A stretch of DNA of 64,000 nt from Rhynchobatus australiae (lineage: Eukaryota): contig JAUZTB010000057.1 in assembly GCA_034780895.1 (NCBI GenBank), positions 26,599,030-26,663,029 on the forward strand. The letters are read 5' to 3'. Positions within the stretch are counted from its first letter, which is position 1; the number at the start of each line of letters is the position of its first letter. The notes under the pieces were generated by a model. It had not been told where the DNA came from. It searched no databases and was given only the letters and a program-made list of their open reading frames with translations. Positions 19,545 through 43,068 of this stretch are shown here, piece by piece. The position numbers and the translations under genes are program-made.

Positions 19545-19710
19545 ATAAGATATATTTATAGTCATATGTACATCGAAACACACAGCGAAATACATCTTTT
19601 GCGTAGAGTGTTCTGTGGGGAGCACGTACAAACTCACCGACAGTGGCCAGAATTGAACCTGGGTCGCTGGCGCTGTAATAGCATTATGCTAACAGCTACA
19701 CTTTCGTGCC
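19545..19710 (-). mobile_element. V-SINE with central deletion, nested in CR1
   Basis: tRNA-like head (ggcacgaaagtgtagctgttagcataatgctattacagcgccagcgacccaggttcaattc) joined almost directly to the tail. Most of the V-domain is missing. Confidence 0.8.
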
Positions 19711-20477
19711 TGTCCTCTAGTATTTGANNNNNNNNNNNNNNNNNNNNNNNNNNNNNNNNNNNNNNNNNNNNNNNNNNNNNNNNNNNNNNNNNNNNNNNNN
19801 NNNNNNNNNNNNNNNNNNNNNNNNNNNNNNNNNNNNNNNNNNNNNNNNNNNNNNNNNNNNNNNNNNNNNNNNNNNNNNNNNNNNNNNNNNNNNNNNNNCT
19901 CCAAAGCCTCCACATCCTTCCTGTAATGTGGTGACCAGAACTGCACACAATACTCCAAATGTGATCTAACCAAAGTTTTATACAGCTGCAACATGACTTG
20001 CCAATTTTTATAGTCAATGCTCCCAAACGATGAAGGCAAACATGCTGTATGCCTTCTTTATCACCCTATCCACTTGCATTGCCATGTTCAGGGAGCTACA
20101 GACTTGCACCCCAAGACCTCTCTGTACATCAATGCTCCTCAGGGTCCTGCCATTTACATTGTACTTTCCCCTTACATTTGACCTTACAAAGTGCAACCTC
20201 ACAATTGTCTGGATTAAACTAATCTGCCATTTCTCTGCCATTATTTCCATCTAGTCTAGATCCTGCTGAATCCTCAAACCACTGTCCTCACTATCCTCAA
20301 CTTCACCAATTTTTATCATCTGCAAACTACATTTTCGTCTAAATTATTTATACACATCACAAACAACAGGGGTCCCAGCACTGATCCTTGCGGAACACCA
20401 CTGGTCACAGACCTCCAGTGAGAGGAACATCCCTCCATCACTACCCTCCGTCTTCTATGGCCAAGCCAATTTTGATT

Positions 20478-20820
20478 CCAAGTCAAGCCGAGTTTATTGC
20501 CACATGCACAAGTACAGAAGTGGAGGTACAGCGAAAACCTTACTTGCAGCAACATCACAGGCATGTGGATTCAAGCAACAGACAGAATATGAATTACACA
20601 TAAATTCTACAAAACAGTGAAGAAAAAGATTGCAAAAAAAGACACTAGTGTAAAAAAATAATCAGAGATGAGTTCACTATAGTGCAAGAGGTGGTCTGTA
20701 GTGTTTCGTTGCTGAGATAGGATTATAATTGTGCAGGTGGGTTCAAGAACCCGATAGCTGTAGGAAAGTAGCTGTTCCTGAATCTGATGGTGTGGGATTT
20801 CAGGCTTCTGTACCTCCTGC
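20478..20820 (-). mobile_element. Rex1/Babar LINE 3' end nested in CR1
   Basis: ggcaggaggtacagaagcctgaaatcccacaccatcagattcaggaacagc (the GRRYRSLK segment) through aataaactcggcttgacttg. It splits the CR1 reading frame. Confidence 0.8.
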
Positions 20821-23039
20821 CAATCCACAAAGTCTCCATGGATCCCATGTGCCTTAATCTTCTGGATCAGCCAACCATGAAGGACCTTGTCGAAAGCTTT
20901 ATTAAAGTTCACGCATACAAGATCCACTGCTTTACCCTCATCAGTCACCTTTGTCACTTCCTTAAAAAGTTCAATCAAGTTTGTAAGACATGACCTCCGC
21001 CACACAAATCCACACTGACTATCCCTNNNNNNNNNNNNNNNNNNNNNNNNNNNNNNNNNNNNNNNNNNNNNNNNNNNNNNNNNNNNNNNNNNNNNNNNNN
21101 NNNNNNNNNNNNNNNNNNNNNNNNNNCAAGTCTATGCTTTTCCAGGTGCAAATAGATCCTATCCTTAAGAATCTTCTCCTATAATTTCCCAACCACTGAT
21201 GTAGATTCTACACCTACCTAATTCTGTCAGTCCACCCACTGCTGACAGCTTTATACACACTTTTTGACATTTCTAAATTTAATAACTCTCATCCTTCATT
21301 TCATGCTCAAATCACTTCCCATTTTTCACTAACTTATGATTTCCTACATCCAAAGCATTAATTTGGGATTCTGATCCTCATTTATCAAACTTTATCATCT
21401 CACCCTCCTTTGAGATGTCTCATTCTGTCTTATGTCCTTTTACATAATATTTTTGTCCTCTAACTCTCGGCTTCTGAGCAGCTTCTCCTCCCCATATCAA
21501 TGGCACAGTATATAGTTGCCTCATTTTCCCTTTCTTGCCCCAGCTTGAAAATCTGATCAAAACTTTTGGTTATCTCTCCTAACTCTTGTATCATGGCTCA
21601 ACAACTACTCTTAAGCTGCATTTATCTACCTATTTCATACCCCACCTTTTCACGTGAACAATAATGTAGGGAAGTCAGGTTAATTGTAATCTCATAGTTT
21701 CAGATCATATTCCTCTTTCATAATCGCAACAATGGAGCATTTCCTCTGAGCTGTTTAACCGAACTGTGCCACAATATATGTTGCCTTTCATTCCAATGAA
21801 GGCCTTGGATGGGTCACTTGCTTTCAAAGGATAACGTACTGGAACTGTGGCCTATATAGTTTTGCTGAGATCCTAGTGATTTGCTAGNNNNNNNNNNNNN
21901 NNNNNNNNNNNNNNNNNNNNNNNNNNNNNNNNNNNNNNNNNNNNNNNNNNNNNNNNNNNNNNNNNNNNNNNNNNNNNNNNNNNNNNNNNNNNNNNNNNNN
22001 NNNNNNNNNNNNNNNNNNNNNNNNNNNNNNNNNNNNNNNNNNNNNNNNNNNNNNNNNNNNNNNNNNNNNNNNNNNNNNNNNNNNNNNNNNNNNNNNNNNN
22101 NNNNNNNNNNNNNNNNNNNNNNNNNNNNNNNNNNNNNNNNNNNNNNNNNNNNNNNNNNNNNNNNNNNNNNNNNNNNNNNNNNNNNNNCAGCAGCCAGCTC
22201 AAAAACCCCTCTTCCAACAAATCCACCAGCAAGTCCCCTACTACCAACGGCCTCCGTAAAATCGTAGAATTGTGGAAGCTTTAGGGATTTTATTATCTTG
22301 AAGGTTTTTTTCTAATAGAATTATGTGCAGATAACTGCATCCACATCTCACCCCAATTGTTACTCATCACAGGAGTTGGCTCTGTTTTTTTGAGTGCCTC
22401 CATAATATTCAAACGGCTTTGAACTGTGCAGCCCATCCCTGGGTTATGAACTTATAGACATCTGTATGTTTGAACAAGCTCCCATAAATATTATATATTA
22501 AATTCAAAAGTCCACCATACATACATATATTCGTCCGTACGAATGGCAGAACTAGTTTCCTCCCTCTCTCCACTTATAGTCATTGTTCTTTCTTATCAAT
22601 CTTGTGTGTTTTGGATACCACTCATTATAATACTGTGTATTTTACATATTTTCTGACTTATGCACAAAATCAACTTAAGGAAGTCTGTAAAAACAGAACC
22701 CACTTGTTACCCAGGCAAGGCCTGTATACGGTTTGGTTACTTTATCTTTTCTAAAAGGGGAATCATTACCACAGCCTTCCCTCTACTCACTGTAATAATG
22801 TGATAATTCACACTACAAGAACAGATTGTCCAGAATACAAACTTGTGTCAGAATTCTTTCAGCCTCTTTCTGTTTCGGAAACAATAATGACTCGAGATTA
22901 ATTTTGTATCTTCCCTATTGCATTCCACATTTCAGTCATTTCCTGTTTCTCTCCTGCTTGCAGTCCTCTGCCAAAATTGTTCATTAACTAGCTGGTGTGC
23001 AACAGATGGGAATATAATGCACAGCACTGCACCCTTTAA

Positions 23040-23182
23040 TCCCTCCCCATGTAAATCACCTGTTCCTAAGTGAACATTCACCCTTTCCCATTTGCAACTT
23101 CGTGTGTTTCAATTCTAACCTTCCCCTCTACGCAAATGCTGCCTGACCTGCTGAGTATCTGCAACATTTTGTGTTTTTATTC
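23040..23182 (+). mobile_element. Penelope-like terminal fragment
   Basis: cccctctacgcaaatgctgcctgacctgctgagtatctgcaacattttgtgtttttatt. Confidence 0.55.
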
Positions 23183-23874
23183 TCCCCTCCCTGACATTTA
23201 GATTAGAAACAGAGCGAGAAAAAGCACAGAAGCTAATCTGTGCCAAATCTACATGCAGAGTCAACACGCCAGTCACATTCCACAGAACCTGCTAGGTAGA
23301 GAGAACTCTTCCCCTGTATTGATGCCTAATCTAATCAACATGGACTCAAAACATTTTACTAACTTCTGATTCATTGCTACATCTCAAGGCTGCTCGCTTA
23401 TTTGCGAAATAAGATGACATTGGATTGTGGTAAAATGATATCAGAAACAACTGTGAATCTTCGGGTTTCAGCCACTTACTCATTCACTCACTGACTCAGC
23501 AACCCAATGAAAACAAAGAAATAGCAACACTTCAAAGTATCCGGCAGTCATTACAATTCTGCTCTCTGAAATGAGATTATACTTTATTGTAGTCTTAAGA
23601 GTTAATGCACCAAAAACGATAAGTCTTGTTGAAATCTTTAATCCTTTGTTGAATATAATCTAATATTAATTTCCTACTTTGCACGATGTATTCAGGTGAT
23701 TAATTTTCTGCACCAAAATGACAATCTACTGTGAGGAATCAGACATCAGAATCCTGGACTTTATGACAAAGTCCCAGGATTAATACAACAGGTCTTCATT
23801 GCAAGTGCCCAAACATCAAACATCATAACATGCATTCTCCCTGTGCTGTATGGAGCTGGGCCTATATATAAAGC

Positions 23875-24249
23875 CTTCACTGTGAGTAACCTGATACTCT
23901 GTACGATGGTCTTCACTGTGAGGGCCCAGCCACACTACACCATGGTCTTCTTTGTCATGACCTAGGCACTCATGATCTTCACCATGAAGGTCCAGATAGT
24001 CTGTACCACTGTCTTCACTGTGAGTACCCAGGTGTCTAAGGCATCGTATTCACCATGAAGACCCAGGCAGTCCATACCAGGGACATCACTGTGAAGACCC
24101 AGCCACTCTATTCCATAGAGATCACCGTGAAGATCCAGCTACTTTACACCACGAAGATCCAACCACTTAACATCATGGTCTTCACTGTGAAGGTCCAGCC
24201 ACTCTGTACCACAGTCTTGACTGTGCACATCCAGGCACTCTCCACCACC
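23875..24249. repeat. Degenerate ~36-bp minisatellite, about 11 copies
   Basis: Recurring unit resembling cttcactgtgaagacccagccactctgtaccatggt, starting near 23875, 23911, 23947, 23977, 24013, 24048, 24084, 24120, 24180 and 24216. Confidence 0.85.
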
Positions 24250-27200
24250 NNNNNNNNNNTGATAAAGGCAGATCTGTGCACTGGGATTTAGACATCACAC
24301 TCAAAGGATTCGAGTTGCCATCAAATCTCATTGCAATTGACAGGATAGGCAAAAGACCCTCCCTTCTAAGCAACAAATCAATTTCACACTACTCAATCAG
24401 CAATGCATTCTCTTCGTGTTAGTCACGTCAGCTCACCGTCTCCAAAAGTGACCTGACACATCTGCGGTGGGATCAGCTTAAACCAGACAACTGGGCAAAC
24501 AACATAGTAAGGATCAAAAAAAAGCCAAGCAACACCAAGTGTCCTAAATCATAACAAAAACGTGGATCATTTATCAAAATTCTGAATTAAGAAGGTTCAA
24601 TTTGTAAATCCACAAGTTGATATTTTTACTCAATTTACTGTACAAATTTCCACCTTCCCCTTCAATACCTAATGCTTATCACAAATCATCAGTGCGCAGA
24701 CCACAACTATAAATTTAGCAATTAAATTGAAAGCTGTTTGACATGCACTTAGGGATTTTTAGAGAATCCCATTATCATATTGGCATCCTGACAATATTCT
24801 AATCAAGCCAAGAAATTTTCCCCTTTATTCTTTGTACTATTTAAGCGAACCTAACAGAATGTGCAGGAAAATATTACAAGTTTAACATAAACCTTCTGAG
24901 TAAACAAGTGGTCATTTTAAACAGTGCTTAAGCCACCTTGAGACGTACTTGTACATATAATCTCTCTCGTCAGGAACTCCAAAACAGGAGACTGGATTTG
25001 GTCCAGTGAAGTTGTGGGAAGCATTGGCACACTAAGGGTTAAGGTGAACATAATTATTTTTTAAAAAAAGAACCTTCTTCCTCACACATTTAGCAGCAAG
25101 ATAACATCTTGGAACTGACTAAAGTTTCCTGTGTATTTGAAGCAGAAAATACTATCATCTGCTGGGTGAAGCAACACTTGGAAAGCCACATTGACGGCAC
25201 AGGCAAATTCTGACTGCTACAACTCACTTACCCAGAAATATTGTAAAGTCCTGCGCAGCCATGGGCAATAATAGTAATCCATCTCCTCTGATGAGAATAT
25301 CTCTGTGTGTTTAAAAAGAAGTAGTTCAAATAAGCTCACACTGCCACATCCCCATTCACTTGCTATCCGTCAATTTCTGAGTTAAAAGTGAGCACTGGGG
25401 CAGGCTGAGCAAAGTTTCCCCTGATGTCACTTACTAAACCCAGCAGCTCGTGCACACGCACACTCATGTACTCAAAGTAGCTGCTGATTTGCAGTCTCTT
25501 CCCCACATTCAGCGCTGTCAGAGTATTCACTAGCTGAGAGTGAGAGAGACTAAGATCACATGATGCAGCAGCCAGGAAATGACTGTTGCTAAAATTGCTG
25601 CCTGGCCGTGCTTTTAAAATGCAGCAACTTTTTTTAAAAAAAAAACTAGTCTTACCTAAAATTTAAAAGAGACATTGTTCTTTTATATATGATGGTATAA
25701 AAGTCTCAATTGATGAGGAAGTCTCCAACAGCAGTGGGACACAAGAAATGAATTCTGCTGGTCAGTGTAGAGTTGGACAGCAGTGGAACAGATAAAGTTC
25801 CTGCCTCCTCAGCCACAAGCAGTTGTTTACTATATATGGTATTTTGATATAAAATGCCAACAGACATACTTGTACACTGACAGGAATGCAAGGGAATGAT
25901 ATTTAAACACACTGTTCCCCCACACCCTGATATTGTAAAGGACCATGATACTTTTACATTTAATGTGTGAACGATATTCAAGCCTTGCTTATGCTATAGA
26001 TAACATCTGTTTGGGTGGGAAGTTAGATATGATGTAATTGACTTCAACGTGACCCCAGTTGTGAATTATTCTGTTAATATAATTTATCAAATTCTGGATG
26101 AAAGATCCTTTAATATATGGTGGCTGCATAGAGGTGGTTAAAGGATAATTGAGTCAGCATGCAACCTGGTAACAGTCAACTTGGGTACAAGGAACTGTAA
26201 AAATCAACATGGGACTGAAATCTCTCTACTGACAGGTGAAAGCTTTTCACACTGAACAGCCCTGGAAAATTGTCACCTCTCCATCTTCAGAAAATAATAG
26301 ACTCGTTTTTACCTTGCACTTTAAATAGCCCCCAGAAGTGAAGTTACTTTTAGGCCAGTTTTGTAGTTTTTGATTGTTGTAATGCAGGGAATACTCCAGT
26401 CAAATTGCACACAAAAAAAATAAACCCCATGGTTATGGTGAGGATATAATCTCTTTCAGTGATGTGGGGTTTGGGGTAATTATTGTCCAGGATGTCAAGG
26501 TGATTGTTTATAGCTGTCACATGGGACTTTTGATCTGAAAAATGGCATCTCTTGCAGTGCAATAATTAGACTTGCACCAGAGTGTCAGCCTAGATTGTGT
26601 TGAAGTCTCTGATATAGGACTGGATGCACAGCTCCCTGACTCTGTTAAGTGGTGACTGACACAGTGCTCTTCCAAAACTGTGTTTGTGCCTGCGATCTCC
26701 ATCCAGACTACATAGCTGCTGACCCGATAGTGCTGAGCATGGACGGTACCCGAGGAGCTATCCACTGAAACAAACACAAAGAGGGACTCCTCAGTTTTTC
26801 ATAGAACATTTGCTCGCAAAGTCCAATGCAAGCCTTTGGGAATTATTAATTCCAGTGTAATTTGCCTGATTTGCTGACTTCAAGAAAGAATGGGGATAAA
26901 AAAGGGAATTTATTTTGAAAATTTTTAACAAAAATTCCATTCTGTAATATTAGCACACAATACAGTCCTTCCCAGGTTATATAAACACCTGAATTACGGA
27001 CAGCTCGTACACATGAATGAGCGTTTGAGAGACTGGCGGGATGGATGGGGATGGATTTGCTGGCTGCTGCAGGGCTGCGGGATTCTTTTACTGGGTGGGA
27101 ATGGGGCATTTCCATGTTCCTTCTCTTCCCAATACCTGCCCTCCCAACCCCACCCTGCAGCGCCACAACAATCAGCAGTTGTTCCATTCTCCCTGTATTT

Positions 27201-27899
27201 TATGAATCATCCCCGTTCTAATATACATTTAATACCTAACTCCTTAAATGACCCAAATCTAGTCAGACTGATCAAGATTGTACTGTTTAAAATGCATAAT
27301 GCATTTTATCACAAAATGCTGGGTGATCACCACTGCTAAAAATCTTAGCTGGACCAGACATGTCAGCAATGTTATTACAAGAGCATGATAGAATCCAAAT
27401 AATCTGGCATGTGTGGCTCACCTCTTGACCTTCAAAGCCTCTCCACCATCCACAAGGTTCAGATCAGGAGCATGTTTGACTGCTAACAGCTGTCTGGATG
27501 GGTGCAGAAGAGTAACACTGAATAATGTTGGCATCAATTAAATTGATAGCACCACTGTCAACATTGCAACAGGACCTACACTTCAAAAGTACCCCAGTAG
27601 CTATGAACTACCCTGAGACACTCTGTGATTGTAAACCCTGCTATAAAATTCCTGCACTGTCTTTATTTCTTTCCTTCACTCCTGCGTCTCGAAGGTATTT
27701 CAAACTATGTTTATTGTCATTCCTAGCACTCTTTAAGTTTCATCGTTTGTAATTTCAACACCATCCNNNNNNNNNNNNNNNNNNNNNNNNNNNNNNNNNN
27801 NNNNNNNNNNNNNNNNNNNNNNNNNNNNNNNNNNNNNNNNNNNNNNNNNNNNNNNNNNNNNNNNNNCATGTTCCTTCTCTTAACCCCCCCCCCCCCCAC

Positions 27900-28158
27900 C
27901 AACTTCCCAACTCACAACAATCGGGGGCTGGGTCAAGATGAGCAGAGCTGGGAGTGCTGAGCAGACTCACTCGCTCACTCACCGAGTCAGTGAGGCTGGC
28001 TGGTGGCCACACTTCCTGCTCCTGCTCGCCCTCCCATCATGACTGTTCCCGCGATCCTCTCCCGCATGCTCTTTTTGTTCATTTCTGACTTAGGAACAGT
28101 TCAGATTATGAACTGTTCTCATGAACAGAACCCTGTCATGACCTGGGGACTGCCTGTA
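27900..28158. mobile_element. Tc1/mariner-pogo (Tigger-like) non-autonomous DNA transposon end
   Basis: Ends ...catgacctggggactgcctg+ta, i.e. a TIR CAGGCAGTCCCC next to TA. Similar in reverse to 35780-35865. Confidence 0.55.
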
Positions 28159-28449
28159 TGCACTTATATAAAAGGATAAGTGACCCTGCTGTGTGGGATT
28201 GTGGTCACATGCTGAAAAGGAGACCTATGTCAGGTGCCTGCTCTTAGGCAAACCTTCACTGCCGATCACTTGAGTGTAAACTGAGCACATCCTACAAAGA
28301 TTAAGAGAAGGAAACATTTTGCAATGGCAAGCAATGCAATTGCTTCACAATTCTATCCAACCAAACCTCCCAGACACCTTGCGAATTTACTTCCTTTTCT
28401 TGTATTTTACCTACTTCAGTGCTCCTTTCAAGTTAATCTGGTGTAATAT

Positions 28450-30256
28450 TCAATTAGTAAGGGCAGAAATATAGTGGCCTACAGGAGGCTCCTCTTCAAA
28501 AATACGTTTTATTTCCCACGGTGCCACTCACACTGTGTCAGAAGATATGGTGATCTATGCCGTAGAGCACGCCATGTACCATTAGGGTCATTTGGAGGCT
28601 GGACTTATCATAGCCAGCAGCATTTCATCAGAGAGACAAGCCCAAGATTTTATGACATCGTCACTGAACCAGGTACTGGCACCTGTTCAGATTACACTTT
28701 CATCCAAGCAAGACACCTGCCACTTGATGTACGCTAACATTGGACTGACCACTGCCCAATCAACTTTCTTTCCTCCATCAGAACAATGATTTTCAGTAAT
28801 GTGCCTATATTCTTGAGTGTTTGGAATGGGATTGTAACTGACATAACAACTGACATAATCCCAACACAAAATGGTGTCAAGCAAGGCTGTGTCATTGCCC
28901 TAACACTTATTACAATCTTTTACAGCAAAATGCTGCATACAGCCTCCCAATACATTTCCTGCTAGAGTGCACCTAATCTACTAAACAAATGGGAAAGAGT
29001 TAAACCCACGTCATCTCCATTCCAAAACCAAGTTATTTTATCCTCAGTTGTTATGTTGGAGTTTAGACAATAGTTGTGTCTGGACACGTTCAGAGAGAAA
29101 GCTCCAAGGCAGTAAAGACCTGTTCACTGAAGTATATAAAAAGTGGGTTTTACACCTAACATGTGTAGAACAACTGTCCTCTTCCAACTTGACTTGAACT
29201 GTACAACACAATCCCTCGTCAATTAAAGTCACTGTTTGACAAGACCCTGGAAAGCACCCTGGGCCACTTCCCATTTCTTGAGAGCAATGAAAGCAGACAT
29301 CCATGATAAAGTTNNNNNNNNNNNNNNNNNNNNNNNNNNNNNNNNNNNNNNNNNNNNNNNNNNNNNNNNNNNNNNNNNNNNNNNNNNNNNNNNNNNNNNN
29401 NNNNNNNNNNNNNACCACTACCTTCATTACCCCAGCACCTTTGGAAAAGAGTATTTGAAGAATAAGATCACAAATGCATAACTAAGCTCATGGTCAACCA
29501 GGAAACAGATCCTTGCTCTTCTATATGCTTCTCAGATGAAGACTGCAGATGTTTCCATGCACTGGAGAGGTACCAACAATACTGTCTCTGCAAACTCCTC
29601 CTAATCCAGGATAAGTGAAGTAATATCAGCATCCTCTCCCAGACCAACAACCCCAGCGTCAGGGCCACAATTACATTCAGTCAGCACCAACACCAGGACT
29701 TATTGTTTGCATGCCTAACACCAGACTCCAAAGACAAACAATTTGTGTAACACTCGATGAACAAATATTCTTCTCCAAGCCGTGTTGGCAATGGAATACA
29801 GGGTGACCAGAGAAAACTTCCTCGAAAGAGTGTAATATGATTGCTGAGCCATGGGAATCCCTGTCTCATTACTGGTCAAGGTGGGGAAGAAGCATTTAGG
29901 ATGGCATTGAGAACCTGGAGTCCCTTCATTGGGAGCACACACAAGCCCAGTTTACACAGAAGCAGGGCACAGCCTCCCAAGCTACGTACCTGCCCACCCA
30001 TCTGCTGAACACTTCCTACCCCATCTGGGGCAGGATCCACATTGGCCTCATCATTTCTGTTGGTTCTGAGGTCGTTGAAGAGGAAACAAGTCATCCCTGA
30101 GCNNNNNNNNNNNNNNNNNNNNNNNNNNNNNNNNNNNNNNNNNNNNNNNNNNNNNNNNNNNNNNNNNNNNNNNNNNNNNNNNNNNNNNNNNNNNNNNNNN
30201 NNGAAGAGGAAACAAGTCATCCCTGAGCCCGAGGAAATGCACAAGAAGAAGAAGAT
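28450..30256 (+). mobile_element. Decayed RTE-clade LINE with (GAA)n tail
   Basis: aatggtgtcaagcaaggctgtgtcattgcc encodes NGVKQGCVIA, an RTE RT motif. The element ends cacattggcctcatc...aagtcatccctgagcccgaggaaatgcacaagaagaagaaga. Confidence 0.7.
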
Positions 30257-31154
30257 CCTATCAGAGTTTCCCAAGTTACTGCAGCAGAACAGATCAAATT
30301 GTGTTCTCTTTAAATTGTACAAAAAATTTAAGGTTATGCTATGGAGTCAGAGACAGGTACTGATTTATTCCATTTCTACTTCTGCAGACAATGAATTTCA
30401 AACCTTAACCACATTGAAAATCATCACATCTCCCTTGTATCTTTTGCCTAACATTTGAAATCTGTGCTCCTTAGTTCTTAAACAATCTGCCAATGGGAAC
30501 AGCTTTGTCTGATACCACCTCTGAACTAATCATGACTGTGAACACATCTATCAAATCTTCTCTCAATCTTCCTTATTCCAAGGAGAAAAATACCAGCTTC
30601 TCCAGTCTAACTGTAAAACTGAAATCTTCACCCCTGGAACCAATCTAATAAATACTTCCTGCAGCTTCTCTATGGGCTTTTTATGCTCTCTCTTGCATAA
30701 TGGACACAATACTTCAAAGTAACAACATTTAATCTGGATGCATAACCCATGGGTACACTGTCCAGTAACTAATTAAAAACAGAAGACTGATTTAACAATA
30801 TGTAACCAAATACATTACCACGTGTTATATCTAAATAAATTTTCAAACAAGTACTGCGAATTGCAAAAGGACAAATTTTGTGAACTGATGCATTATATTA
30901 ACATAAAAGGAAAATGCTTGATCTGTGCTCTGTCACATGTGTAAAGGTGGCATGAAGGAAACTCAGATTAGTGTCAGAAATAACAACTATTTTTTGCACA
31001 ATATTTCACCATTCAGCAGTTCTCAGTCAAACTGAGAAATGATCCATTATTGTTGTCCCCTTCCACCTCCATATATTGCAATTTTAGAAATAGAAATGCA
31101 CTTAGACTGAAGCTGTGCAATAAATTTTCAGCTATTATAGAATCATTGAACTTG

Positions 31155-31245
31155 GAATAAAAACAGGAACATTCAACTCACCAGAACCCGTGGAAAGAGA
31201 AATAGAATTAATGTTTCGGGTCAACGATCCTTCATCAGAACTGTT
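31155..31245 (-). mobile_element. Penelope-like terminal fragment with the best-preserved hammerhead-like motif
   Basis: Minus strand: cAGTT CTGATGA A GGATC gtt GACCC GAAA CA TT AATT ctatttctctttccac. Confidence 0.6.
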
Positions 31246-32039
31246 CCACTTTCCAGCCTGACATAATGAACTGCATCATTATGCATTACACTCTAAGATA
31301 AAAGATGCAAAATGTGCTTGAACAAACATGCATTATAATAGCTCTGGCCAATCTGAAGCTCTTGCATGTTTTTAAATGTTTATTAATGAACGTTTAAAGG
31401 TTTGTGCTAATTTTGTTATCTTTGTATTCTTTTAGCTAGACTCTCATTTTCCGGAAGGACTGGTAATTCATGACATGCTGTGGGAGCTGTACGAAAGCTT
31501 TGAAGAATCCTGATGCCTCCTAGGCTCTCCTGCACATTTCAGCATTACACTGAGATCAAGTGCAGGCAAATCAATGGTTACCACAGTCATCAATTAAATA
31601 TTTACCCGTTCTCATGTGTAGAAAGAAGACCAGAAGTGGCACCAAGTGCCCTCTCAAATGTTATTAAGCTAAATGACTGCAGGTTCTGGTGAGATTTATA
31701 AGAACTATGTACAAACAAGTGCAGGAACACATAGAGAAACTTCACATAAATCAGAAAGTGACTCATGGCTAGAGCTTTTATGAGCAAACAGCTATATCAC
31801 AAAGTGTGATTTATTGATTGCTAAGCTAATGGAATTGCAGTGGCAGGTTTTAAAACAATATCAATTATATAATGAACATATGAAAACAAAAAGGAACAGT
31901 GAGTTCAAATAAGCCCTCATTCCAACCCTCAATCCATACAAAAAAAAGTCCTTTCCCGTATTCAATATCATGCAGAATAATGATAAATTCTATGGATGGG
32001 AACAGGAGTCACAGAGTCATTGACAGGCAGACTAAGTAG

Positions 32040-32705
32040 CCACAAAGTTCAGAACGGAGACATCCAAGGTTATTAAATCAGAACCAAGAAAGGAGAGTTC
32101 AAAATAGTGAGAGATTTGGAACTCAGGAGGAGCTAGGGTGCATGGGGTTCCATGAACAAAAATCATGAAAAACTGGTGGATGAGTTCAAAAATAAATAAA
32201 AGTGATAATTCAATGTTGTTTATTTCAGGGAGCTGGAATATAAGAGTGAGGAACTGATCTTTCAATTATACTGGGTCTTAGTCAGACTTCATCTGGAGCA
32301 GTGGGTTTGGTTTTGAGCACTACACCATGGGGATGATATGTTGGCATTGTGATGGGCACAGCACAGATTTATCAGCATGATATCAGGTTCAAGGTTTGAA
32401 CAATATCAAATCAGTTGCATTGACTGGATTTGTAGTTCTTTCTGTTGAACAGTTAGTGGGGTGATTTCAAGGGAAGAGTTTAAAATTTAAAGATAATCTG
32501 ACACAGAAACTCTTTCTTCTGAGAAGGAAATACAAACCAAACAAGTGTAATTTTAAACCTGAAATTTTCAAAGCTGAGATAATAGTTTTCTCATTGAGGA
32601 AGTTTGTACAGAATAAAGGCAGTTCAATGGATATGGCTTCAATAGCAATGATTTAACAGAATGACAAAGGCTATATTGTGATTGAATGGCCTATACTGTT
32701 CCCCT
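32040..32705 (+). mobile_element. Old CR1 LINE 3' region
   Basis: gggagctggaatataagagtgagg...gtcagacttcatctggagcagtgggtttggttttgagcac is a decayed VRPHLEYCVQFW region. Confidence 0.55.
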
Positions 32706-33939
32706 AACAGATAAGGAATCATTAATTGAGTTCTGGCTTTTGTTCTGATGCTGAAGAGCACAATAAATGGGAAAAGCCACACAACCCTTCATAATTTGAC
32801 AAGTTCTTCATCAATCTTTCTCCTCACCTCCACTTTCCAGCCCAATCACCATACCCCATGGTTTCCCTGGGTTCCAAAAATGTCTCACCCAACAGAGCCA
32901 AAGTGGATGCCCAAGGATTTCAATGCTGGGGATGTTAGCCTGGGAGTGGACACTGCCATTGGTTCAATACTCCTTTTAGTGGATTAGGAGGATTTTGTGG
33001 AGACAGCTATGGTAGTATCTCTCCAGAACATGAGGTGCCTGCTGTGGGTACTCCACATCTCTGCACTGAAGATAGGCTCTATTGTAGATCCACGAGTTAG
33101 GACCCTGGCTTGCATGCTATCAGAAAGCAAGTGCAAGATAGAGATGAATTCGATGAGCAGCTGAACTTGAGGAGAGTGCTCCAGAGTTCCTCCCAGTTGA
33201 CAGAATCAAAGGCTCTTGTGAGGTTGAGAAAGGCCATACTGCTACCGGCACCTCTCTTAGAATTGTCATGTGGAGAAGATCATGCCCACTAATGCCTCAA
33301 GATGAATGAAATTCAGCAATTTGGGGAGTCAGTCACTAACGAATCAGCAGTTACAGCACCCTGGGGCAGAAAATTCTGAAAACCCTCAGGTCAAGAATTT
33401 TGCTCCGATTTCAATCCTAAATGTCTGAGCCCCAGTTATTCTGAGACTATGCTCTTGAGTTCTGGATTCTCCATCCATGGGAGACAAAATTTCAGCACAA
33501 GTTAATCCCTTAATTGCATTCTAAATGCTAGGGAATCAAAAACAGTATTACTAATCAACTGAAAGTGAAATCTCTTGACTGAGTTGAGATGCTATTTTTT
33601 GCTTAAAGTGGACTTCTGTTGTATGATTTACATTCAGAAGCATCCCTTCAAAATTAGGCCTTGTTTTCTGAAACTGGGTCTCAGAAACCTGTAGGTTACC
33701 TGCAGATTGGGGACATTACATTTTATAGAATCAGATTTATGAAGAATGTATGGAAAACATTCAAGGCCATTCAGGATCTGCTGGGTCTAAGACTTTATCC
33801 AATCAGTCCCACTCCCCTGCTCTTTTCCCACAGCTCCACAAATGTTTCCGCTCATGTATTTACAATATTTCCCATAGAGAGCAGAATATGCACTCATGAC
33901 CATTCAAGACAGAGCAGGATAAATCAGAACTAGAATACT

Positions 33940-34480
33940 GAGGTCACAACTAGAATACTGTGCACAGTTATGGACCCTTTCTGGAAAAAGCATATAGTAG
34001 CTTTGGAGACAGTTCAAAGGAGATTCACCAGCTAATTCCTGGTACAAGAGGGTTGTCCTATCAAGAGAGGCTGATGGTTTGGGCTTAAAAGAATGAGGGA
34101 AGACTTCATTCAAACATAAGATCCTAAGGGGGCTTGACAGGATAGACGTTGGGATATTTCAACTGGTAGGAGAGTCTTGAACCAGGGGACAGAGCTACTT
34201 AATAAAGGGCAGGTCATCGAAAACTGAAATGCGTAGAAATTTCTTCTCCCAGAGGGAGGTGAAGCTCTGGAATTTTCTGCCCCTGAAGGTGATGGAAGCC
34301 AGATGATTTGAGATATTTAAGGTGCAGATGGATAAATATTTGAATGATCAGGAACTGAGTTAAGAGAAACTGACACAGAAGAGGAGTTGAGGTCAGCATA
34401 GATCAGCTATGACCCTACTGAATGGAGGGACAGATGTGAGGGGCCAAGTGGCCAACTTCTGCTCCACTTTCTTTTGTTCT
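33940..34480 (+). mobile_element. CR1 LINE 3' end
   Basis: gaggtcacaactagaatactgtgcacagttatggacc...aggagattcaccagctaattcctgg...gatcagctatgaccctactgaatggaggg. Confidence 0.75.
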
Positions 34481-35779
34481 TTGTGTCTGCCCATGCTCCA
34501 CTCTACTGGGTAACCCAGGTCTTGTATTTAGGGTGTTAAAAGCTTGCATATGCCTTTGAATAACTATCTAAAATCTCCTTCTATCCTTCTCTGCTTGAAG
34601 GACAGCCCCAATTTCCCTCGTCTTCCCAACCGAAACCAATTGCATCCTTGAGGTACAACATTTTCAAACACTGAACATCACATTACCATTCACTGATCTT
34701 AACAATCTCATCCAAACGGGACATTTCTCCTGCTGAAAGACAAGAGCCCCGCTTGTCATGGAGTTTATGAGCAGCATATGTCTGTTTGCAAGCTGGGAGA
34801 CAATGGCTGTGAAATGTTACAAAACACAGCTGCCATTAGCAGGCTGCTAATACTAAATTTTCCATGCAGGGGTACAAAATGCTGCTTTAAACAAAGCACT
34901 GTGGAAATATTTTTACTGAATGGACCTATGTGAGAAACATGGAGTGACAAAACAAAACCCATCAGTCCCATTTCTCACCACAGGAGCACTCAGATCTGCT
35001 GCATTAAACTCTCAGAGCAAATGCACCTTGCTGTCAGATTTTAAATACCTTTCAGACAATTAAATGGAATTGAAGAGGGTTGTCATCGAAAAGCACAAAT
35101 CATTCAAACAAACCAGAAGCCCTTGTGGAGCCACCTCAAACTGCGGGACCTTAAAGTCATAAATTCGCTCATCATAACTGGACAAGCATGTTGTCAATTT
35201 CACATCAAGGCCTCAGGAGGCAAATTGCTGTTAACATTCCAGTGCTGGAGGTAAAGGGAACTAAGTATGGAAGCTGTAAAATTTATTTCTGCCTCTATTG
35301 GGTGACCCAGATCGTGATCCAACATTACAGAAGATCACTGTTTAAAAGGATGGCTTTACAGTCAGAGAACAAGGTGAAGTCAGTATTAAGTAAATTTAAC
35401 TTTTATTACAGTCTAATTTGTCAGCACTGTGTTAAAAGTAGCAAAGCCTTGGACAGTGCAGACTGGAGATGACACAAGACGTTATTGTTTGTAGTACTGA
35501 GCTAAAGCTGTGTTGGAGCAACTCCCTCCCCAAGTACCATCCAGGTGTGTCAGTGTGCTGTCCCACCAAAGCCAGAAACGTAGTTGTTCCCACATCTCCA
35601 GCAGCATAGTGCTTTGTGGCTTCATGTTGGACTTGAAGTGGGTGAGACTCTCAGGGGAGTATAATTAATCCAAGCCTGGCTGCCATGAACGTTCACGTAC
35701 ACATCAATGAGGAATTGAGAGCAGACCTCTTGCTCACCCTCTCAGCCAGTGATTGGCAGGAGGAGGAATTAAAATGATA

Positions 35780-35985
35780 TGCAGGTCATCTCCAAATTAC
35801 GGCAGGGTTCAGTTCCTGTGAACTATTCGTAACTCAAACAGTTCACGTGTCAGAAATGCAGCCGCGAACCAAGTTTCTAAGCAGCAGAAGTTGCCTGCAG
35901 CTTTGTAGCAGCTGAAAATCAATACCACCAGTCTCACAAACAAGCCAGGTGTTGGTAAGCTGGGGAGGCAGTTTCCTCCTTAGTA
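35780..35985. mobile_element. Older copy of the Tigger-like MITE
   Basis: caggtcatctccaaattacggcagggttcagttcctgtgaactattcgtaactcaaacagttcacgtgtcagaaatg aligns by eye with the reverse complement of 28080-28156. Confidence 0.45.
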
Positions 35986-36000
35986 ATGCTCCTGACTTTA

Positions 36001-36462
36001 ATGGTATTGGTTTATTATTATCACTTGTGTTACGGACTAGGACTATTAGGTTCCTTTAAGATAGTGTGTGTGTGTGTGTGTGTGTGTGTGGCGTGCTTAC
36101 ATCAACAGAAGATAAAGAACGTCATGACGTTGTTGTTGAANNNNNNNNNNTACATTAAGTTAGCACAGAGTGCATTGAGGTAGTACAGGTAAAAACAATA
36201 ACAATACAGAGTGAAGTGTCACAGCTACAAAGAAAGTGCAGTGCAGGTAGACAATAAGGTGCAAGATCACAAGGGAGATCATGAGGTCAGAGTCCACCTC
36301 ATCGTATAAGGGAACCATTTAATAGTCTTCACCAGGGGATAGAAACTATCCCTAAACCTGGTGGTATGTGCCCTCAGGCTCCTATATCTTCTACCTGATG
36401 GAAGAGGAGAGAAGGGAGACTGACTCGGGTGGTGGGGTTTTTGATTATACTGGCTGCTTCAT
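36001..36462 (-). mobile_element. Rex1/Babar LINE 3' end
   Basis: ggtattggtttattattatcacttgt tail and ctcaggctcctatatcttctacctgatggaagagg (reverse strand LLPSGRRYRSL). Same family as 38095-38290. Confidence 0.75.
36064..36090. repeat. (GT)n microsatellite
   Basis: About 13 GT units. Confidence 0.9.
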
Positions 36463-37109
36463 ACAGAACGATAAGGGAGTCCTCTGTAACAAGTATTAGA
36501 TTCAAGGCCCAGATGCTAATAGTTGGATGCCCAGCTGTAAACCTTGGCTATTTTTTGCTCATATCTGCAACCCATACAAACAAAAAGAATACATAGGTAC
36601 AATCAAAGGATCACTGCATCCATGTGCTAAAGGGGTTTATTAATAGACATGTTTTAATCGAGGAACCTGGACGAAGAGCCCACAGGTGATTGTGCAAAAC
36701 ACCACCCAGTTTTCAGAATGGTAGTGATCAGGTAGANNNNNNNNNNNNNNNNNNNNNNNNNNNNNNNNNNNNNNNNNNNNNNNNNNNNNNNNNNNNNNNN
36801 NNNNNNNNNNNNNNNNNNCATGGGATTACATGAGGTAATGTATCTGAATCCAAGGATCAAGAAATTTTTAATGCCAGTATATAATTATTACAGCAAATTT
36901 AACTTACTAAACTTTTCATTCGGTGAATGTTGCTCAGGAGGCACAATCCATTTTTATGTTGATCAAGGTTACATCAGTTTTCCTCGTTTATCCTCTGAAT
37001 GAAACCTGGGAGATGAAGTGCCACATCATAGAAAATATCGAAAATCTCAGATTCTTAAATAATAAATAGTTCAAATGTTTTTGTCACCGAGGCAGACTCA
37101 ATCGTCTAT

Positions 37110-37232
37110 TATAAAAACAGGAAATATTAGAAACACCCAGCAAGTCCACAGATGCTGCCCAACCTGCTGAGGTTTCCAGCGTTTTCTATGTTTATTTCAG
37201 ATTTCCATCATCTGCAAGTTTTATGATTTTCA
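37110..37232. mobile_element. Palindromic pair of Penelope-like termini
   Basis: ataaaaacaggaaatattagaaacacccagcaagt is followed by ccacagatgctgcccaacctgctgaggtttccagcgttttctatgtttatttcagatttccatcatctgca, so the two arms are in opposite orientation. Confidence 0.55.
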
Positions 37233-37904
37233 ATAATCTGGTAAGTGAACCAGAGGAGTTCTCAGCCCTGCAGAACACTGATGGTATTAAACCACCCAGC
37301 TCGTGGAATCCAGAGGCAGATTTTTTTTATATATAAAAGGTACCTGCCCTGTGGCCATCAGTGGCAAGGCTGATCATTATTGTCCTGAGGTGAGGCTGCA
37401 CCAGGCCAATTCAGTTAAAAATGCTGGAGTAGGACTGAGGTCACACAAAGACCATGGACCATGTAACATCAGATTTCCTTCCCTAAAGAAGAGGGCCAGA
37501 AAAGTTGGGATTCTGTGACAACCGCACAACATCATGGCAACGTCCACTGACAGCAACTTCTTTTCCTCCCATAACTTTTTTTGAGCTAAATTTAAATTCT
37601 CTAATGGAATGTGAGCTTGAAATTTAAATTTCAGATTCAGGCTTCAGGCCAACTGGACAGCAGGTTCAGTGTGAAGCTCCAGCACTGTCTCACACAGCTG
37701 GATTTCATCCATTTAACTACTTATATTCTTGCACTCAGTGGTTCAACACGTAGGCAATCCTGGCTGGACACTTTACAAATGTTCTGTACCTTGAGACTGT
37801 GAAACACAATTACTCCTGAGAATTTCCACTTCTTGACTATGTCAGCCTTTAAAGTTCAAAACATGAACTCTCTCTGGAACAACTTTAATTTATATACTAG
37901 CTTT

Positions 37905-38075
37905 AAGAAGCTAAAACAATGGCAAGGTGTAATTAAACAAAATCTGACACCATGTCACATAAGGAGATATTTGGTCAAATGACCAAAGCTTAATGAAGGG
38001 AGAGGCTTTAAGAAGCATTTTGAGGAGGAGAGAGAGAAGTGGAGACCTATGAGGGGTAAATTTGTGCTGTGGTCG
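37905..38075 (-). mobile_element. L2-like LINE 3' fragment (related pieces at 41250-41460 and 43630-43960)
   Basis: aaaatctgacaccatgtcacataaggagatatttggtcaaatgaccaaagctt...ttttgaggaggagagagagaagtggag. The reverse complement resembles 41300-41400. Confidence 0.5.
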
Positions 38076-38092
38076 CAGGCATGGACACCAAT

Positions 38093-38470
38093 GATGGTAT
38101 TGGCATTGGTTTATTATTGCCACTTGTACTGAGGTACAGTGAAAAGCTTGTCTTACAAACCAAACGTACAGGTCAATTCATTACACAGTGCAGTTACATC
38201 GAGTCAGTAGAGCCCATTGATGTAGTACAGGTAAAAACAATAACAGTACAGAGTAAAGTGTCACAGCTACAGAGAAAGTGCAGTGCAATANNNNNNNNNN
38301 NNNNNNNNNNNNNNNNNNNNNNNNNNNNNNNNNNNNNNNNNNNNNNNNNNNNNNNNNNNNNNNNNNNNNNNNNNNNNNNNNNNNNNNNNNGTTTGTTAGA
38401 AAGTCCAGGATCCAGTTACAGAGGGAGGCGTTGACTCTTAGGTCTCGGAGTTTGGTAACGAGCTTACTTG
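38093..38470 (-). mobile_element. Rex1/Babar LINE fragment spanning a gap
   Basis: ggtattggcattggtttattattgccacttgtactgaggtacagtgaaaagc tail, and internal tccaggatccagttacagagggagg (reverse strand SLCNWILDFLTN). Confidence 0.75.
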
Positions 38471-39454
38471 CTCAATCCTGAAAACCAGGATTGCCTTAAG
38501 GCTAGATTTCGAGAAATTCAGAAATTTCAGGATGGTCATAAGGCTGGAGGAGGCGAGAGAAATTAAAAGAGGTATGGCCAGCAAAGGCTTCTGAAAAAAA
38601 TGGGAGTGTTAAAATGGAAGCACTGCTTCACCAGGTTATAGGGCACATGTGTGATTGAGTGGGGATATGGGCAACAGAGCACAAGGCAATGCAAGTTAAG
38701 GGGGGTTGAGAAAGGACACATTCAACTCTAGTTCAGCTTGGGGATGGGATGTGCCATAAATATAGCCAACTAAATCAGAATATTCACACAGAAAATCTGA
38801 AAATGACATGAGGGAAAAAGGCAAAATTAAGAAGAAAGGGATGGAAGGAGAAATTGAGAGTGAGAATGGAAGAGGTAAAATGGTGAGGGTACTTAATATC
38901 TCACTTTGATATTGCTAAAGCAGTTTGAAGAGAATAAACAAGGATGAGCAAGATATGTAAAAATGAATTTTTAAAAATAAACAAATTCTTCAAAAAAATG
39001 AGCACTAATGCCTCTTCAGGAACTGAAAAAAAAAGTAGACTCTGCAGAGACTGGTATTTTTCTTGCAGTTGTTCACATTTGGAAGGTTATTCATTTGGAC
39101 ATTGTATTCCAATTATTTTTTCAAAATGTAGTAATTCACCTTAAACACAGTTTTTGGCCAACTCCAAGTCAAAGATCTGAACACACTGGAACTCAACCAA
39201 CACAAAGCTTTCAAAACTTGAAGCATTTTCCAGCACTCAACAAAGGCTTAATGTGGGGATGGGGGGGGCGGAGAATGTAAAATCAAATTAACTTGTACCA
39301 CGGAAGCTTTTCTTTTCAGTTTACAACAATCAACTTGACCAGCAGGACTGTAATTTTCCATCAGGTCACTAATTTTATACCTTGAGACAGGAAGGACTGG
39401 TGTGTCGACTTCTGGTGTGAACCTTATAATCCAATGAATGGAAGGCTAAACAGG

Positions 39455-39750
39455 AGGCTGCAAAATCATTCTTCCCCTCTGCCATCAGATTTTTGAATGG
39501 TCCATGAACCCTACCTCGTTTTTCCTTTTTTGCACAGTTTCATTTGTAATTTATAGTAATTNNNNNNNNNNNNNNNNNNNNNNNNNNNNNNNNNNNNNNN
39601 NNNNNNNNNNNNNNNNNNNNNNNNNNNNNNNNNNNNNNNNNNNNNNNNNNNNNNNNNNNNNTAATTTTACATGTTTGCACTGTACTGCTGCCGTAAAATA
39701 ACAAATTTCACGACATACAAGTCAGTGAAAATAAATCTGATCCTGATTCA
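39455..39750 (+). mobile_element. Rex1/Babar LINE 3' tail
   Basis: cttcccctctgccatcagatttttgaatggtccatgaacc...gcactgtactgctgccgtaaaataacaaatttcacgacatac...aataaatctgatcctgatt is the reverse complement of 11005-11190. Confidence 0.8.
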
Positions 39751-41489
39751 TAGATTGATAGCCCAATTTGGGCAATAATTCATTCCTGAATACAGCTGTC
39801 TGAAGGTTCATTGAGGAGAGCTGGAAACATATATCCAACCGGAGTGATACTGATGCATGTGAACTAAAACACAGAATAATAGATTCTCCTTTCAAATTAA
39901 ATTACAAATAAAAATTTTTTCCATCTGTCAGTTCATTCGGCAGAGGATTATGATCCAGGGAATTAGAGCCAGTGGTCTTTACTCATACCTTAGGCTGAGT
40001 TGCTGATTTCCATGCAAGATTCTGTGATTCAGAAGTTACGAACCTGGTTTCCCAGTGCAAGTTCCTACAGTAATACGTAAAGGTGCCTCCATGAATGGAG
40101 ATGGTGGTTTAATGAACTATTAATGTGAACTGATGTAATTTCATTGTCTTTGTGATGTCACAGTTACACCTCTGAGCTCATTGGGATGACAGTGCAACTT
40201 AATACGTCTCAGTGTTTCACACAAACAATAAAAGGAAAATAAGCATCAACATTTTTATATTTTACTGTCCTTTCTAAAAGGGAAACAAACATGGCATAAG
40301 TATCAGGAATATACTATTATATATTAATTTATTNNNNNCTTCTTCCATGTTAATTTCTAATCACATGATTTGATCTTTCACAGCTAATACAACACAAATG
40401 CTCATTTTCAGTCTTGTGAATACATACATCAAAAAAAAAGTACATGCTGAAACAAAAGCAAGCGTTTGTAAGTCAGCATTTAAAAACAAACCAGTTCATG
40501 TTTCAGGTCTGATCCTTTCACCATTTCTGATGCAGGGTTAATACTGGTAACACTGATTTGCCTTCCCTTTTCAGAGACTCTGAGAAACCTGTTGAGTTTT
40601 GCTGCATTTTGTGTGTGTGTCTGACCCCATGAATGACTTTGAATACTCTCTTGTTCTTGTCCATAATTGAAATTGAAAAATAAGGAACGTCACAAGTACT
40701 TAGTAGATTTGCTCAAGAAGGTCACTTGAATCTACTTTGCAATACACCTATAAAAGTGTACGTGAAATCCAAGGCCTTTCTGAAATGTTCACCTTCAAAC
40801 ATGGTGCTCACCATAAAGATGGTCCAAGACCTTTAATCTCCAATNNNNNNNNNNNNNNNNNNNNNNNNNNNNNNNNNNNNNNNNNNNNNNNNNNNNNNNN
40901 NNNNNNNNNNNNNNNNNNNNNNNNNNNNNNNNNNNNNNNNNNNNCTTTAATCTGCAATTGGAATCATAACAAAGTAAATTCCAGCAGAGGAGACACTTTT
41001 CACTGAAAGCAAATAGAGTTTCTCAAACTCACGACAGGATCCACCAACTTCTTGGGATTCAAACTGGAAACCCTGGCAACACAGCAGGTCAATAAACTTT
41101 TTTTAAAAAACATGGGCTGTGCTCAGATGGAGTCTAGACTAAAATCATCGGAATTCAGTGAATTCTTAGGCTCCTTTGAGAGGCTGAGTTGTCACAGGGC
41201 ATATCTCAATGCACTGATCTATTCTGCAGCATTCTCTCTCTTTGTTGTTGCAACTTATACAAGCTGAAATAACTTCATCAGCCAAGCCTCTAAGCTCTGT
41301 AATTTCCTGCTTAACCTCTGGTTCTCCAACCTGCTTTAAGATGTGACTGAAAAGTGACCTCTTCACAGAGATTTTGCTCATCTGCCCTCATTTCTTTTTA
41401 TAAGGCTCAGTATTTTCTTTCTTTGATAATAATACTGTCAAGTACCCCGGGGTGCTTCTGAAGTTTTTTGCGTTTTACATTCCATGGGC

Positions 41490-42370
41490 AGTGTAGCTCG
41501 AAACACCTGAAATGAAGCTGAGAAGCAGCACCTCTTTTTTTTCCCTATTATACACTTCACAGTCTTCCGCACTTGGCACTGAATTCAACAACAAACACTC
41601 TGCTGGAGGGTCTCAGCAGCATCTAATGNNNNNNNNNNNNNNNNNNNNNNNNNNNNNNNNNNNNNNNNNNNNNNNNNNNNNNNNNNNNNNNNNNNNNNNN
41701 NNNNNNNNNNNNNNNNNNNNNNNNNNNNGGGAGGGGTGGGGGAAGGCAGTGGAAAGAGGAATTGTCAATGTTTCAGGTTGAAACCCTGCATCAGACATCA
41801 TTCCTGATGCAGGATTTTGAACCAAAACATCAGCAATTCCTCTCCCCCAACAGATGCTGGAGGAACTCAGCAGGCCAGGCAGCATCTGTGGAGAAAAGCA
41901 GGCGGTCAACATTTCAGGTCAGGACCCTTCTTCAGTGTTTTTCATCTAGACTTGAGCATCTGCAGTCCTTTGTTTCTCCTCCAGCAGATTGTTTGTTGCT
42001 CCAGAATCCAGCAACTGCAGTCTCTTGTGTATTCACTGAATTCAACAAATTCAGCTCACAATCTATATCTCCATTGTTTTAGACTCTGTTAGTGATGACT
42101 TGGATGTCACTATTTATACCTATTCTAGATCAATTTTATGTTTCTTGTCCCTTCAACACTCCTTTTTACCATCCACTATCATTCGTTTTGATATCTAACT
42201 ACTTCTGCCTTCAAAGATCAGCCCTCTCATTCTTTCCTCCCCACTTTTCCCATCCTCTGTACTAGCTTAAAAGCTGTATGACATCTAATTTGAGAGACTA
42301 AGCTGTTTCAATGCCCACACATGCTATTAGATCTATCAAATATTCACAGAAATGTTTGTTTTTAATTGCA
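41490..42370 (+). mobile_element. Old Penelope-like element (GIY-YIG C-terminal end and 3' region) with a nested insertion
   Basis: gaagcagcacctctttttt...acacttcacagtcttccgcacttggcactgaattcaacaa|attcag is a decayed QHL.F.L.TLQP.GL..EFNNF segment similar to 49830-49903. It continues after the insertion into sequence resembling the reverse complement of 925-1110. Confidence 0.55.
41592..42033. mobile_element. Palindromic composite of Penelope-like termini flanked by a 15-bp direct repeat
   Basis: CACTGAATTCAACAA at 41577-41591 and 42034-42048. Inverted repeats at 41589-41609 / 41978-41998 (20 of 21 match), plus a central hairpin at 41756-41842. Confidence 0.7.
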
Positions 42371-42764
42371 CATTTTTTTTTGCTAAGAGTGGTGCCCTGA
42401 GTTACACTCAGTTGCTTGCTCCGACCAGCTCCTCCTCAAGGGGACAGAGGGGTATTGTTTGGGGGCATGTGGGGTGAGGGGAAAGGGGGATTCTGGACAG
42501 GAAATCTCCACTGGACTACAGGCAATCGCTATGTTACGGGGAAATTGTGTGTCCCTGCAAAACTGCTCATATTGTGAATTTCCATAACACAAAGCTGACT
42601 CATCAGTGCAGGCGTCAAGAATCACAAATTACTTATTTAGTTTTGTTTGTCACATCAATTCTGTGAAAGCAAATTTTACTCCTTATGCCAAATTTTAGGG
42701 TAGTGATTTATGAATTCCGTAAATATGAATTTGACCAGAATCCTTGTCAATTTGCTCTCATTGG

Positions 42765-43068
42765 CAGGCAGGGTAGTGTAGCAGTTAGCGTAACACTCTT
42801 ACAGCGCCAGTGACCCAGGTTCATTTCCGACGCTGCCTGTAAGGAGTTTGTACATTCTCCCTGTGTCTGCGTGGGTTCCCTCCGGGTGCTCCGGTTTCCT
42901 CCCACATTCCAAAGACGTAGGGGTTAGGAGTTCTGGGCGTGCTACGTTGGCGTCGGAAGAGTGGCAACACTTGCGGGCTGCCCCCGGCACATTGTCAGTG
43001 ACGCAAAAGTACGCATTTCACTGTGTGTTTCAATGTACGTGACGAATAAATAAATATCTTATCTTTTC
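42765..43068 (+). mobile_element. Full-length tRNA-derived V-SINE
   Basis: A-box-like gtagtgtagcagttag, B-box-like ggttcatttcc, V-domain gtttgtacattctccctgtgtctgcgtgggttccctccgggtgctccggtttcctcccacattccaaagac, and tail aataaatatcttatctt. Confidence 0.9.

Follow-up and report, generated by a model that had tools for sequence, protein, structure and literature searches.

A probable Penelope-like element terminus with a minimal hammerhead motif in a KIAA1671 intron of a ray-like genome, and its sister lineages with altered hammerhead cores

The window, i.e., the whole stretch of 64,000 nucleotides that was analysed, is largely occupied by part of a homolog of KIAA1671, whose large minus-strand open reading frames (ORFs) show 65-72% identity to the KIAA1671 homologs of rays. 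The coding exons of the window (Table 1) are separated by a ~98.6-kb intron from the next coding exon, located ~50 kb to the left of the window, and exon mapping places the focal copy of a dispersed repeat, with its minimal hammerhead motif, on the sense strand of this intron. The original prediction of a cartilaginous-fish repeat with copies in sense orientation in the KIAA1671 pre-mRNA is thus supported by both the homolog matches and the exon mapping. Across the gene span, the repeat has 14 termini in sense and 10 in antisense orientation (P=0.54), with no depletion of the former, and the sense orientation shows no sign of consequence. A co-option of the repeat by KIAA1671 was considered and rejected, with neither strand bias nor conservation in its favor. 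The introns of the window also contain several LINE reverse transcriptase (RT) fragments (11198-11949, 19634-21131, 45647-46099, 50281-50814, 56512-57398 and 60519-60854), which we take to be CR1/L2-like.

Table 1. Features of the window, and members of the lineages with an altered core
Position	Strand	Feature	Basis or remark
1..48285	-	Portion of the ~98.6-kb KIAA1671 intron	tblastn of P0001 and P0003
928..1026	-	Old terminus with disrupted GAAA	profile match
14793..14888	-	Old terminus, CUGA box broken	profile match
23121..23179	+	3' flank of terminus alone, no hammerhead	profile match
31182..31244	-	Whole recognisable 3' terminus remnant of a Penelope-like element (PLE), old subfamily C, holding the focal motif	nhmmer E 2.7e-15; alignment to L058
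31204..31243	-	Minimal type I hammerhead motif of the focal copy	CA in place of the CG palindrome through decay; single mismatch in helix II
31241..31263	+	Weak candidate for a short remnant of the same terminus in inverted (head-to-head) orientation	local alignment to 3' flank
37145..37197	+	3' flank of terminus alone, no hammerhead	profile match
40474..40517	-	Partial terminus, CUGA box missing	profile E 0.0096
40521..40616	+	Degenerate terminus whose box is of the A9C type, facing 40474-40517 head-to-head	profile E 0.0017
41748..41796	-	A9C-lineage terminus, one arm of head-to-head pair	profile match
41798..41864	+	A9C-lineage inverted partner of 41748..41796, G12 lost	profile match
41848..41936	-	Terminus of young subfamily A with a canonical core; TG in place of the palindrome through decay, 5' strand of helix I lost	
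48286-63214	-	KIAA1671 coding exons	PF15327 exons; homolog names
49718..49900	+	PLE GIY-YIG C-terminus remnant	tblastn E 1.5e-11
genome-wide		U4A lineage members: L260-L285, L321-L346	own GIY-YIG clade
		A9C lineage members: L229-L256; window 41748-41864 and 40521-40616	

Read on the minus strand from 31243 to 31204, a letter-by-letter reading already given in the original prediction and confirmed by re-reading the sequence, the focal copy consists of the 5' strand of helix I (31242-31239), a CUGAUGA box of the CUGANGA type starting at 31238 and followed by one extra A, and a helix II opening with G10.1-C11.1, which is interrupted by a single A-C mismatch, is capped by a 3-nt loop and leads to a GAAA box ending at 31214. 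The dinucleotide CA (31213-31212), U16.1/H17 (31211-31210) and the 3' strand of helix I (31209-31206) complete the motif. Helix I comprises four pairs, including one G-U, the type I fold being closed at NUH, and the predicted cut site would lie between 31210 and 31209. Both the CUGAUGA and the GAAA boxes are intact. The palindrome at 15.2-16.2 that allows a dimer to build helix III is absent from the focal copy (CA); because the CG palindrome has decayed to CA, helix III of a homodimer (A-U, C.A, A.C, U-A) is unable to pair, with two mismatches in four pairs, and the predicted fold of the monomer is not a hammerhead. Having lost its CpG and one pair of helix II, the focal copy is therefore predicted not to cleave the pre-mRNA and, from the CG to CA loss and the helix II mismatch, is likely inert. 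The short inverted remnant next to it aligns to the 3' flank of the terminus with a score equalled or exceeded in 42 of 500 shuffles. In a related organism, an orthologous contig contains the ortholog, with nine differences over 31198-31500; seven of them are placed outside the motif and about two likely fall in or beside it, a count that is indirect, the repeat depth masking single differences.

A pattern of the hammerhead architecture, drawn up after the copies had been seen, matches two places of the window (31214-31238 and 41912-41935) versus 0.01 expected from 100 shuffles, and loose CUGANGA...GAAA patterns match seven unrelated places. With a profile built from 78 genomic copies, ten termini are recovered, six on the minus and four on the plus strand. 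The comparison with the Rfam hammerhead models, proposed in the original prediction as a check, turned out negative, with no hammerhead family matched in the window at E<=10. The other cores it had cited all belong to one repeat family, although the strand or the integrity of several of them had to be corrected: the core at 41804-41831 is on the plus strand, as is the second of the copies near 40500 (40521-40616), both being inverted partners of minus-strand copies, GAAA is lost at 997-1022, and the CUGA box is lost at 14855-14887. The C that follows CUGAUG at 41768-41794, 41804-41831 and 40521-40616 corresponds to a lineage trait (A9C) and not to private decay. Inverted neighbouring copies are found at window positions 41748-41864 and at loci L100 and L105. 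The head-to-head pair at 41755-41843, which is intronic, folds into a hairpin of -55 kcal/mol (z -9.1) and is a possible editing substrate. No terminus was found behind the GIY-YIG remnant at 49718..49900.

Beyond the window, a strict core pattern occurs 3,047 times in the 2.2-Gb assembly, compared with a single match in the reversed control. The profile was also applied to 72 regions of 10 kb, placed at round positions of large contigs and amounting to 620 kb once gaps are removed. It identified 122 termini there, versus zero in the reversed sequence, a density that scales to an estimate of about 3.8e5 termini genome-wide. Among the 113 termini with a readable hammerhead region, the palindrome reads CA in 35, TG in 32 and CG in 26, the latter, able to build the helix III of a dimer, being the source state of the family. 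This split agrees with the earlier view of CA as a decayed palindromic CG; it is what CpG decay predicts. Within subfamilies, the divergence of the core (0.04-0.21) about equals that of the flank (0.06-0.18), and the full set of six structural features is found together in 0 of 88 random termini and in 2 of 213 termini of a wider set; from these results, neutral decay is inferred. In principle, complementation between decayed CA and TG copies is conceivable. At L065, two intact motifs (1501 and 1577) occur in direct tandem, 76 nt apart, and could dimerise in cis.

With respect to the structure of the motif, an alignment of 26 copies chosen by hand, namely the focal one and 25 that are young or resemble it, shows pairing in 88.4% of the cells, with 93.8% of cells paired in helix II and 85.4% in helix I. 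The covariation called for in the original prediction amounts to a single two-sided change, from C-G to U-A in helix I, which occurs in nine rows and likely represents one event; none occurs in helix II among these chosen, related copies, so that covariation remains thin. RNAalifold applied to the 26 copies returned an unrelated helix of five pairs and did not recover the hammerhead fold. Another hairpin, located in the 3' flank, is 84% paired, but its two-sided changes are confined to single rows and it is not claimed here. Across lineages, the flank extending about 46-82 nt behind C3 is as conserved as the core in all termini. Many of its columns reach a conservation of 0.9-0.98, it contains a short inverted repeat, and it perhaps represents a recognition signal for the RT.

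The association of the repeat with a coding parent was approached by choosing 29 loci by endonuclease protein alone, the query locus itself being excluded. In 13 of them, two loose matches being left uncounted, the motif is located 233-366 nt behind the end of a GIY-YIG ORF, on the same strand, another 13 are interrupted by gaps or contig ends, and 3 have no motif at that place. The upstream sequence common to copies is of graded length, from a few nt to 669 nt, and translates into a GIY-YIG-like C-terminus. Locus L136 displays RT, GIY-YIG and motif in order, and the arrangement of an RT followed by a C-terminal GIY-YIG is found in both L136 and L101, with broken frames. The RT of L136 shows 27-30% identity (E about 1e-36) to two intact PLE ORFs of the same assembly. 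No Pfam RT family matched the broken frames of L136, the Pfam GIY-YIG score of L023 (18.8 bits) lies under the cut-off of 22.6, and the Pfam GIY-YIG search of the genome gave seven matches, mostly from other PLE families on small contigs, which served as RT references. Focal-type copies have 50-100 nt of upstream sequence in common with the GIY-YIG-linked copies L204 and L155, which ties the focal subfamily to the PLE ORF. No full-length element with two pLTRs around an ORF was found among 20 longer regions. The linkage to GIY-YIG and RT coding sequence supports the Penelope terminus of the original prediction. Neptune EN+ PLEs are characterized by a C-terminal GIY-YIG domain, a CX2-5CxxC linker and a DKG motif before the RT core (PMC8557442). 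The element has in common with them the C-terminal GIY-YIG, the linker, whose C-x2/4-C-x2-C cysteines fit the Neptune pattern, the DKG motif, 5' truncation and adjacent inverted copies (PMC8557442). It likely belongs to the Neptune clade, an assignment based on the linker motif, which Nematis also has.

Minimal hammerheads (min-HHRs) were described by Cervera and De la Peña (2014) in the pLTRs of metazoan PLEs, mostly as single motifs of truncated copies, with a consensus comprising CUGANGA, one extra nucleotide, G10.1-C11.1, a palindromic 15.2-16.2 and a short helix I; their monomers display no cleavage and their dimers low cleavage (PMC4209133). The minimal type I hammerhead of the original prediction agrees feature by feature with this consensus, since the ray motif is of type I, with CUGANGA and the extra nucleotide, G10.1-C11.1, a short helix I and the palindromic 15.2-16.2, is devoid of a real helix III, and occurs behind an ORF as dispersed single motifs (PMC4209133). 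It differs in a helix II of 5 bp with a 2-3-nt loop, and in its host, a cartilaginous fish, none of which was found among the hosts of the motifs in Fig S3 and Table S1 of that paper (PMC4209133). If decayed copies count, its abundance is far above the 4,000-9,000 descriptor hits reported there, which are best compared with the 3,047 matches of the strict pattern (PMC4209133). The core variant described in the same work is U3-A8, and neither U4A nor A9C was found there (PMC4209133). The arrangement of a hammerhead with a PLE is therefore already published for metazoan PLEs, and is extended here to a ray-like genome. A literature search found no shark or ray PLE hammerhead and no U4A or A9C variants; outside its scope is the article of Lunse, Weinberg and Breaker (RNA Biol 14:1499), which reportedly deals with small dimeric hammerhead variants of PLEs and, by its title, with the same class.

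Taken together, the focal 40 bases are very probably the hammerhead-bearing 3' end of a 5'-truncated PLE, likely of the Neptune clade, lying in sense orientation in a KIAA1671 intron and likely inert. In the parent element, the RT, the zinc linker and the GIY-YIG endonuclease would be followed, after about 0.2-0.4 kb, by the hammerhead. By analogy with the literature, helix III would arise in trans, through pairing between the ACGU palindromes of two motifs of a tandem transcript, and the resulting dimer would cut weakly at the GUH site, releasing the unit RNA. Reverse transcription would usually be halted early, so that several hundred thousand short ends would remain and decay neutrally, the CpG of the palindrome first; from the focal copy, with this CpG and one helix II pair gone, no cleavage of the pre-mRNA would be expected. 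Speaking against this reading are the low Pfam scores, the failure to find a full-length element, the thin covariation, the RNAalifold outcome, and the complementarity of the focal CA to the TG of the copy at 41906.

The role of hammerheads in endonuclease-bearing PLEs has been stated as unclear (PMC8557442), and in this respect the variant lineages of the family matter more than the focal copy, which is ordinary. The 3' flank served to collect termini, and flank tags to sort them, with 120 termini that had been selected by their core left out. Of the 213 termini obtained, 113 possess a readable hammerhead region, and 45 of these are unassigned to a subfamily. Subfamilies A (25), B (9) and C (9) have a canonical core by majority, with the CUGANGA box and the extra nucleotide, whereas subfamilies F and E depart from it, F by U4A in 11 of 12 copies and E by A9C in 9 of 10. 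In the random regions alone, U4A and A9C each account for 10 of 42 copies, or about 3e4 copies each if scaled. Genome-wide, the exact-pattern canonical cores (3,047) compare with 1,039 matches with a non-U at position 4 and 848 with a non-A at position 9; among the first 100 listed of each, counted by eye, 70 have A at position 4 and 82 have C at position 9. Transversions exceed transitions by 18:7 at the U4 place and 20:5 at the A9 place. Alternatively, A9C may be read as a C inserted before A9. Position 9 is a conserved core position in the published hammerhead consensus; the literature searched yielded no statement on how A9C affects activity. The natural core variants named in an earlier paper comprise U3-A8, A6C, insertions and U15.1-A16.1, with U4C in its Discussion, U4A and A9C not being among those named (PMC3088659).

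A selection by endonuclease DNA alone retrieved 29 loci with 15 readable termini, of which 13 are U4A and none canonical. From the majority ORFs, dN/dS amounts to 0.12 (A-F), 0.17 (B-F) and 0.24 (A-B), and the changes private to the F ORF, 48 of whose 172 codons are undetermined, are 9 synonymous versus 2 non-synonymous. Because of its own endonuclease clade, the dN/dS of 0.12-0.17 and these private changes, the U4A lineage is read as descending from a protein-coding parent under purifying selection, the timing of U4A on the branch being left free. For the A9C lineage, a link to an ORF is seen at few loci. A search seeded with the protein of a U4A copy returned mostly the canonical lineage B (10 of 12 readable termini) and another, seeded with the DNA of an A9C copy, returned mostly U4A termini, so that the A9C lineage is devoid of an ORF set of its own here. 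In trees, the variant labels need 3-4 changes, with many open forks, and the number of origins is not fixed. Lineage A, which has the shortest branches and looks youngest, is canonical, and every lineage retains the palindrome, the two stems and the majority of the core positions.

It is tentatively proposed that autonomous PLE lineages of the ray, of ~3e4 copies each, have spread with a U4A or an A9C core while keeping stems and palindrome, which would mean either that cleavage is dispensable and the motif a structural signal, or that U4A and A9C represent two new active core variants. The former possibility, in which the Neptune motif acts as a folding or recognition signal, would account for the multiplication of both lineages and is compatible with the PLE-terminus reading of the focal copy, from which it differs on the role of the motif in the parent. 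We consider it a serious contender, somewhat short of evenly balanced. The proportions of U4A and A9C among termini sorted by flank alone, the excess of transversions, the genome counts, the outcome of the endonuclease-DNA selection and the constraint on the U4A-lineage ORF all argue for it. So do the low activity of CUGA-turn mutants, except the C3-G8 swap, found when a type III hammerhead was mutated at every position (PMC9901934), and the Naiad PLEs, which have multiplied without canonical hammerheads (PMC8557442). Against it, the youngest-looking lineage is canonical and most of the core, the stems and the palindrome are kept everywhere. Moreover, the ORF constraint may be older than the core change, and the variant cores may retain enough activity, as U4C does in a viroid (PMC3088659). 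Canonical lineages may also mobilise the variants in trans, the A9C-ORF tie concerns few loci, and the majority ORF F is incomplete. Lineages spreading with an altered core would suggest that cutting is unnecessary for jumping, and the canonical, U4A and A9C sister lineages of one genome offer a natural comparison, readable by a simple cleavage assay.

That the repeat represents a non-LTR retrozyme or SINE-like element in its own right, and not the end of a PLE, is improbable. Most copies are short with little upstream sequence in common, one near-tandem pair exists (L065), and retrozymes have been reported in one chondrichthyan (bioRxiv 10.64898/2026.07.22.740005). Like the ray repeat, non-LTR retrozymes have a type I hammerhead and are PLE-related, and their dimeric cleavage is described in vertebrates (PMC7229834; bioRxiv 10.64898/2026.07.22.740005). 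However, retrozymes consist of canonical motifs in tandem repeats (PMC7229834), whereas the ray copies are minimal, dispersed single or inverted ends, not arrayed, and their graded upstream extents run into the GIY-YIG ORF.

Still less probable, and in our opinion very unlikely, is a mixed hammerhead formed by the focal copy and the copy at 41906, 10.7 kb upstream in the transcript, that would cut the KIAA1671 pre-mRNA. The two copies have undergone opposite CpG decays (CA at 31212-31213, TG at 41910-41911) that make their helix III strands complementary, ACAU and AUGU pairing at four of four positions. Both are sense in one intron, the boxes of the focal copy are intact, and, judged by eye, the 5' strand of its helix I could make three pairs with the 3' strand of its partner. 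Only 4+3 pairs would nevertheless have to span 10.7 kb, with a mismatched helix II, a focal monomer whose fold is not a hammerhead, and a different structure upon free cofolding of both copies. The gene shows no strand bias, and about two of the nine differences of the related organism's ortholog likely lie in or next to the motif, by indirect count.

Finally, a chance resemblance to a hammerhead has a negligible probability: although loose patterns match seven unrelated places of the window and Rfam none, the strict pattern far exceeds its reversed control (3,047 vs 1), the position and features agree with the published PLE motif, and a distant PLE of the same assembly (L090) contains the same core with different stems. 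The minimal hammerhead of L090 is located about 1.15 kb behind its ORF. L090 belongs, with L089, L091 and L093, to a distant PLE family on small contigs with long stop-free ORFs (595 aa in L090 and L091), which may be young, transferred from elsewhere or derived from foreign DNA.
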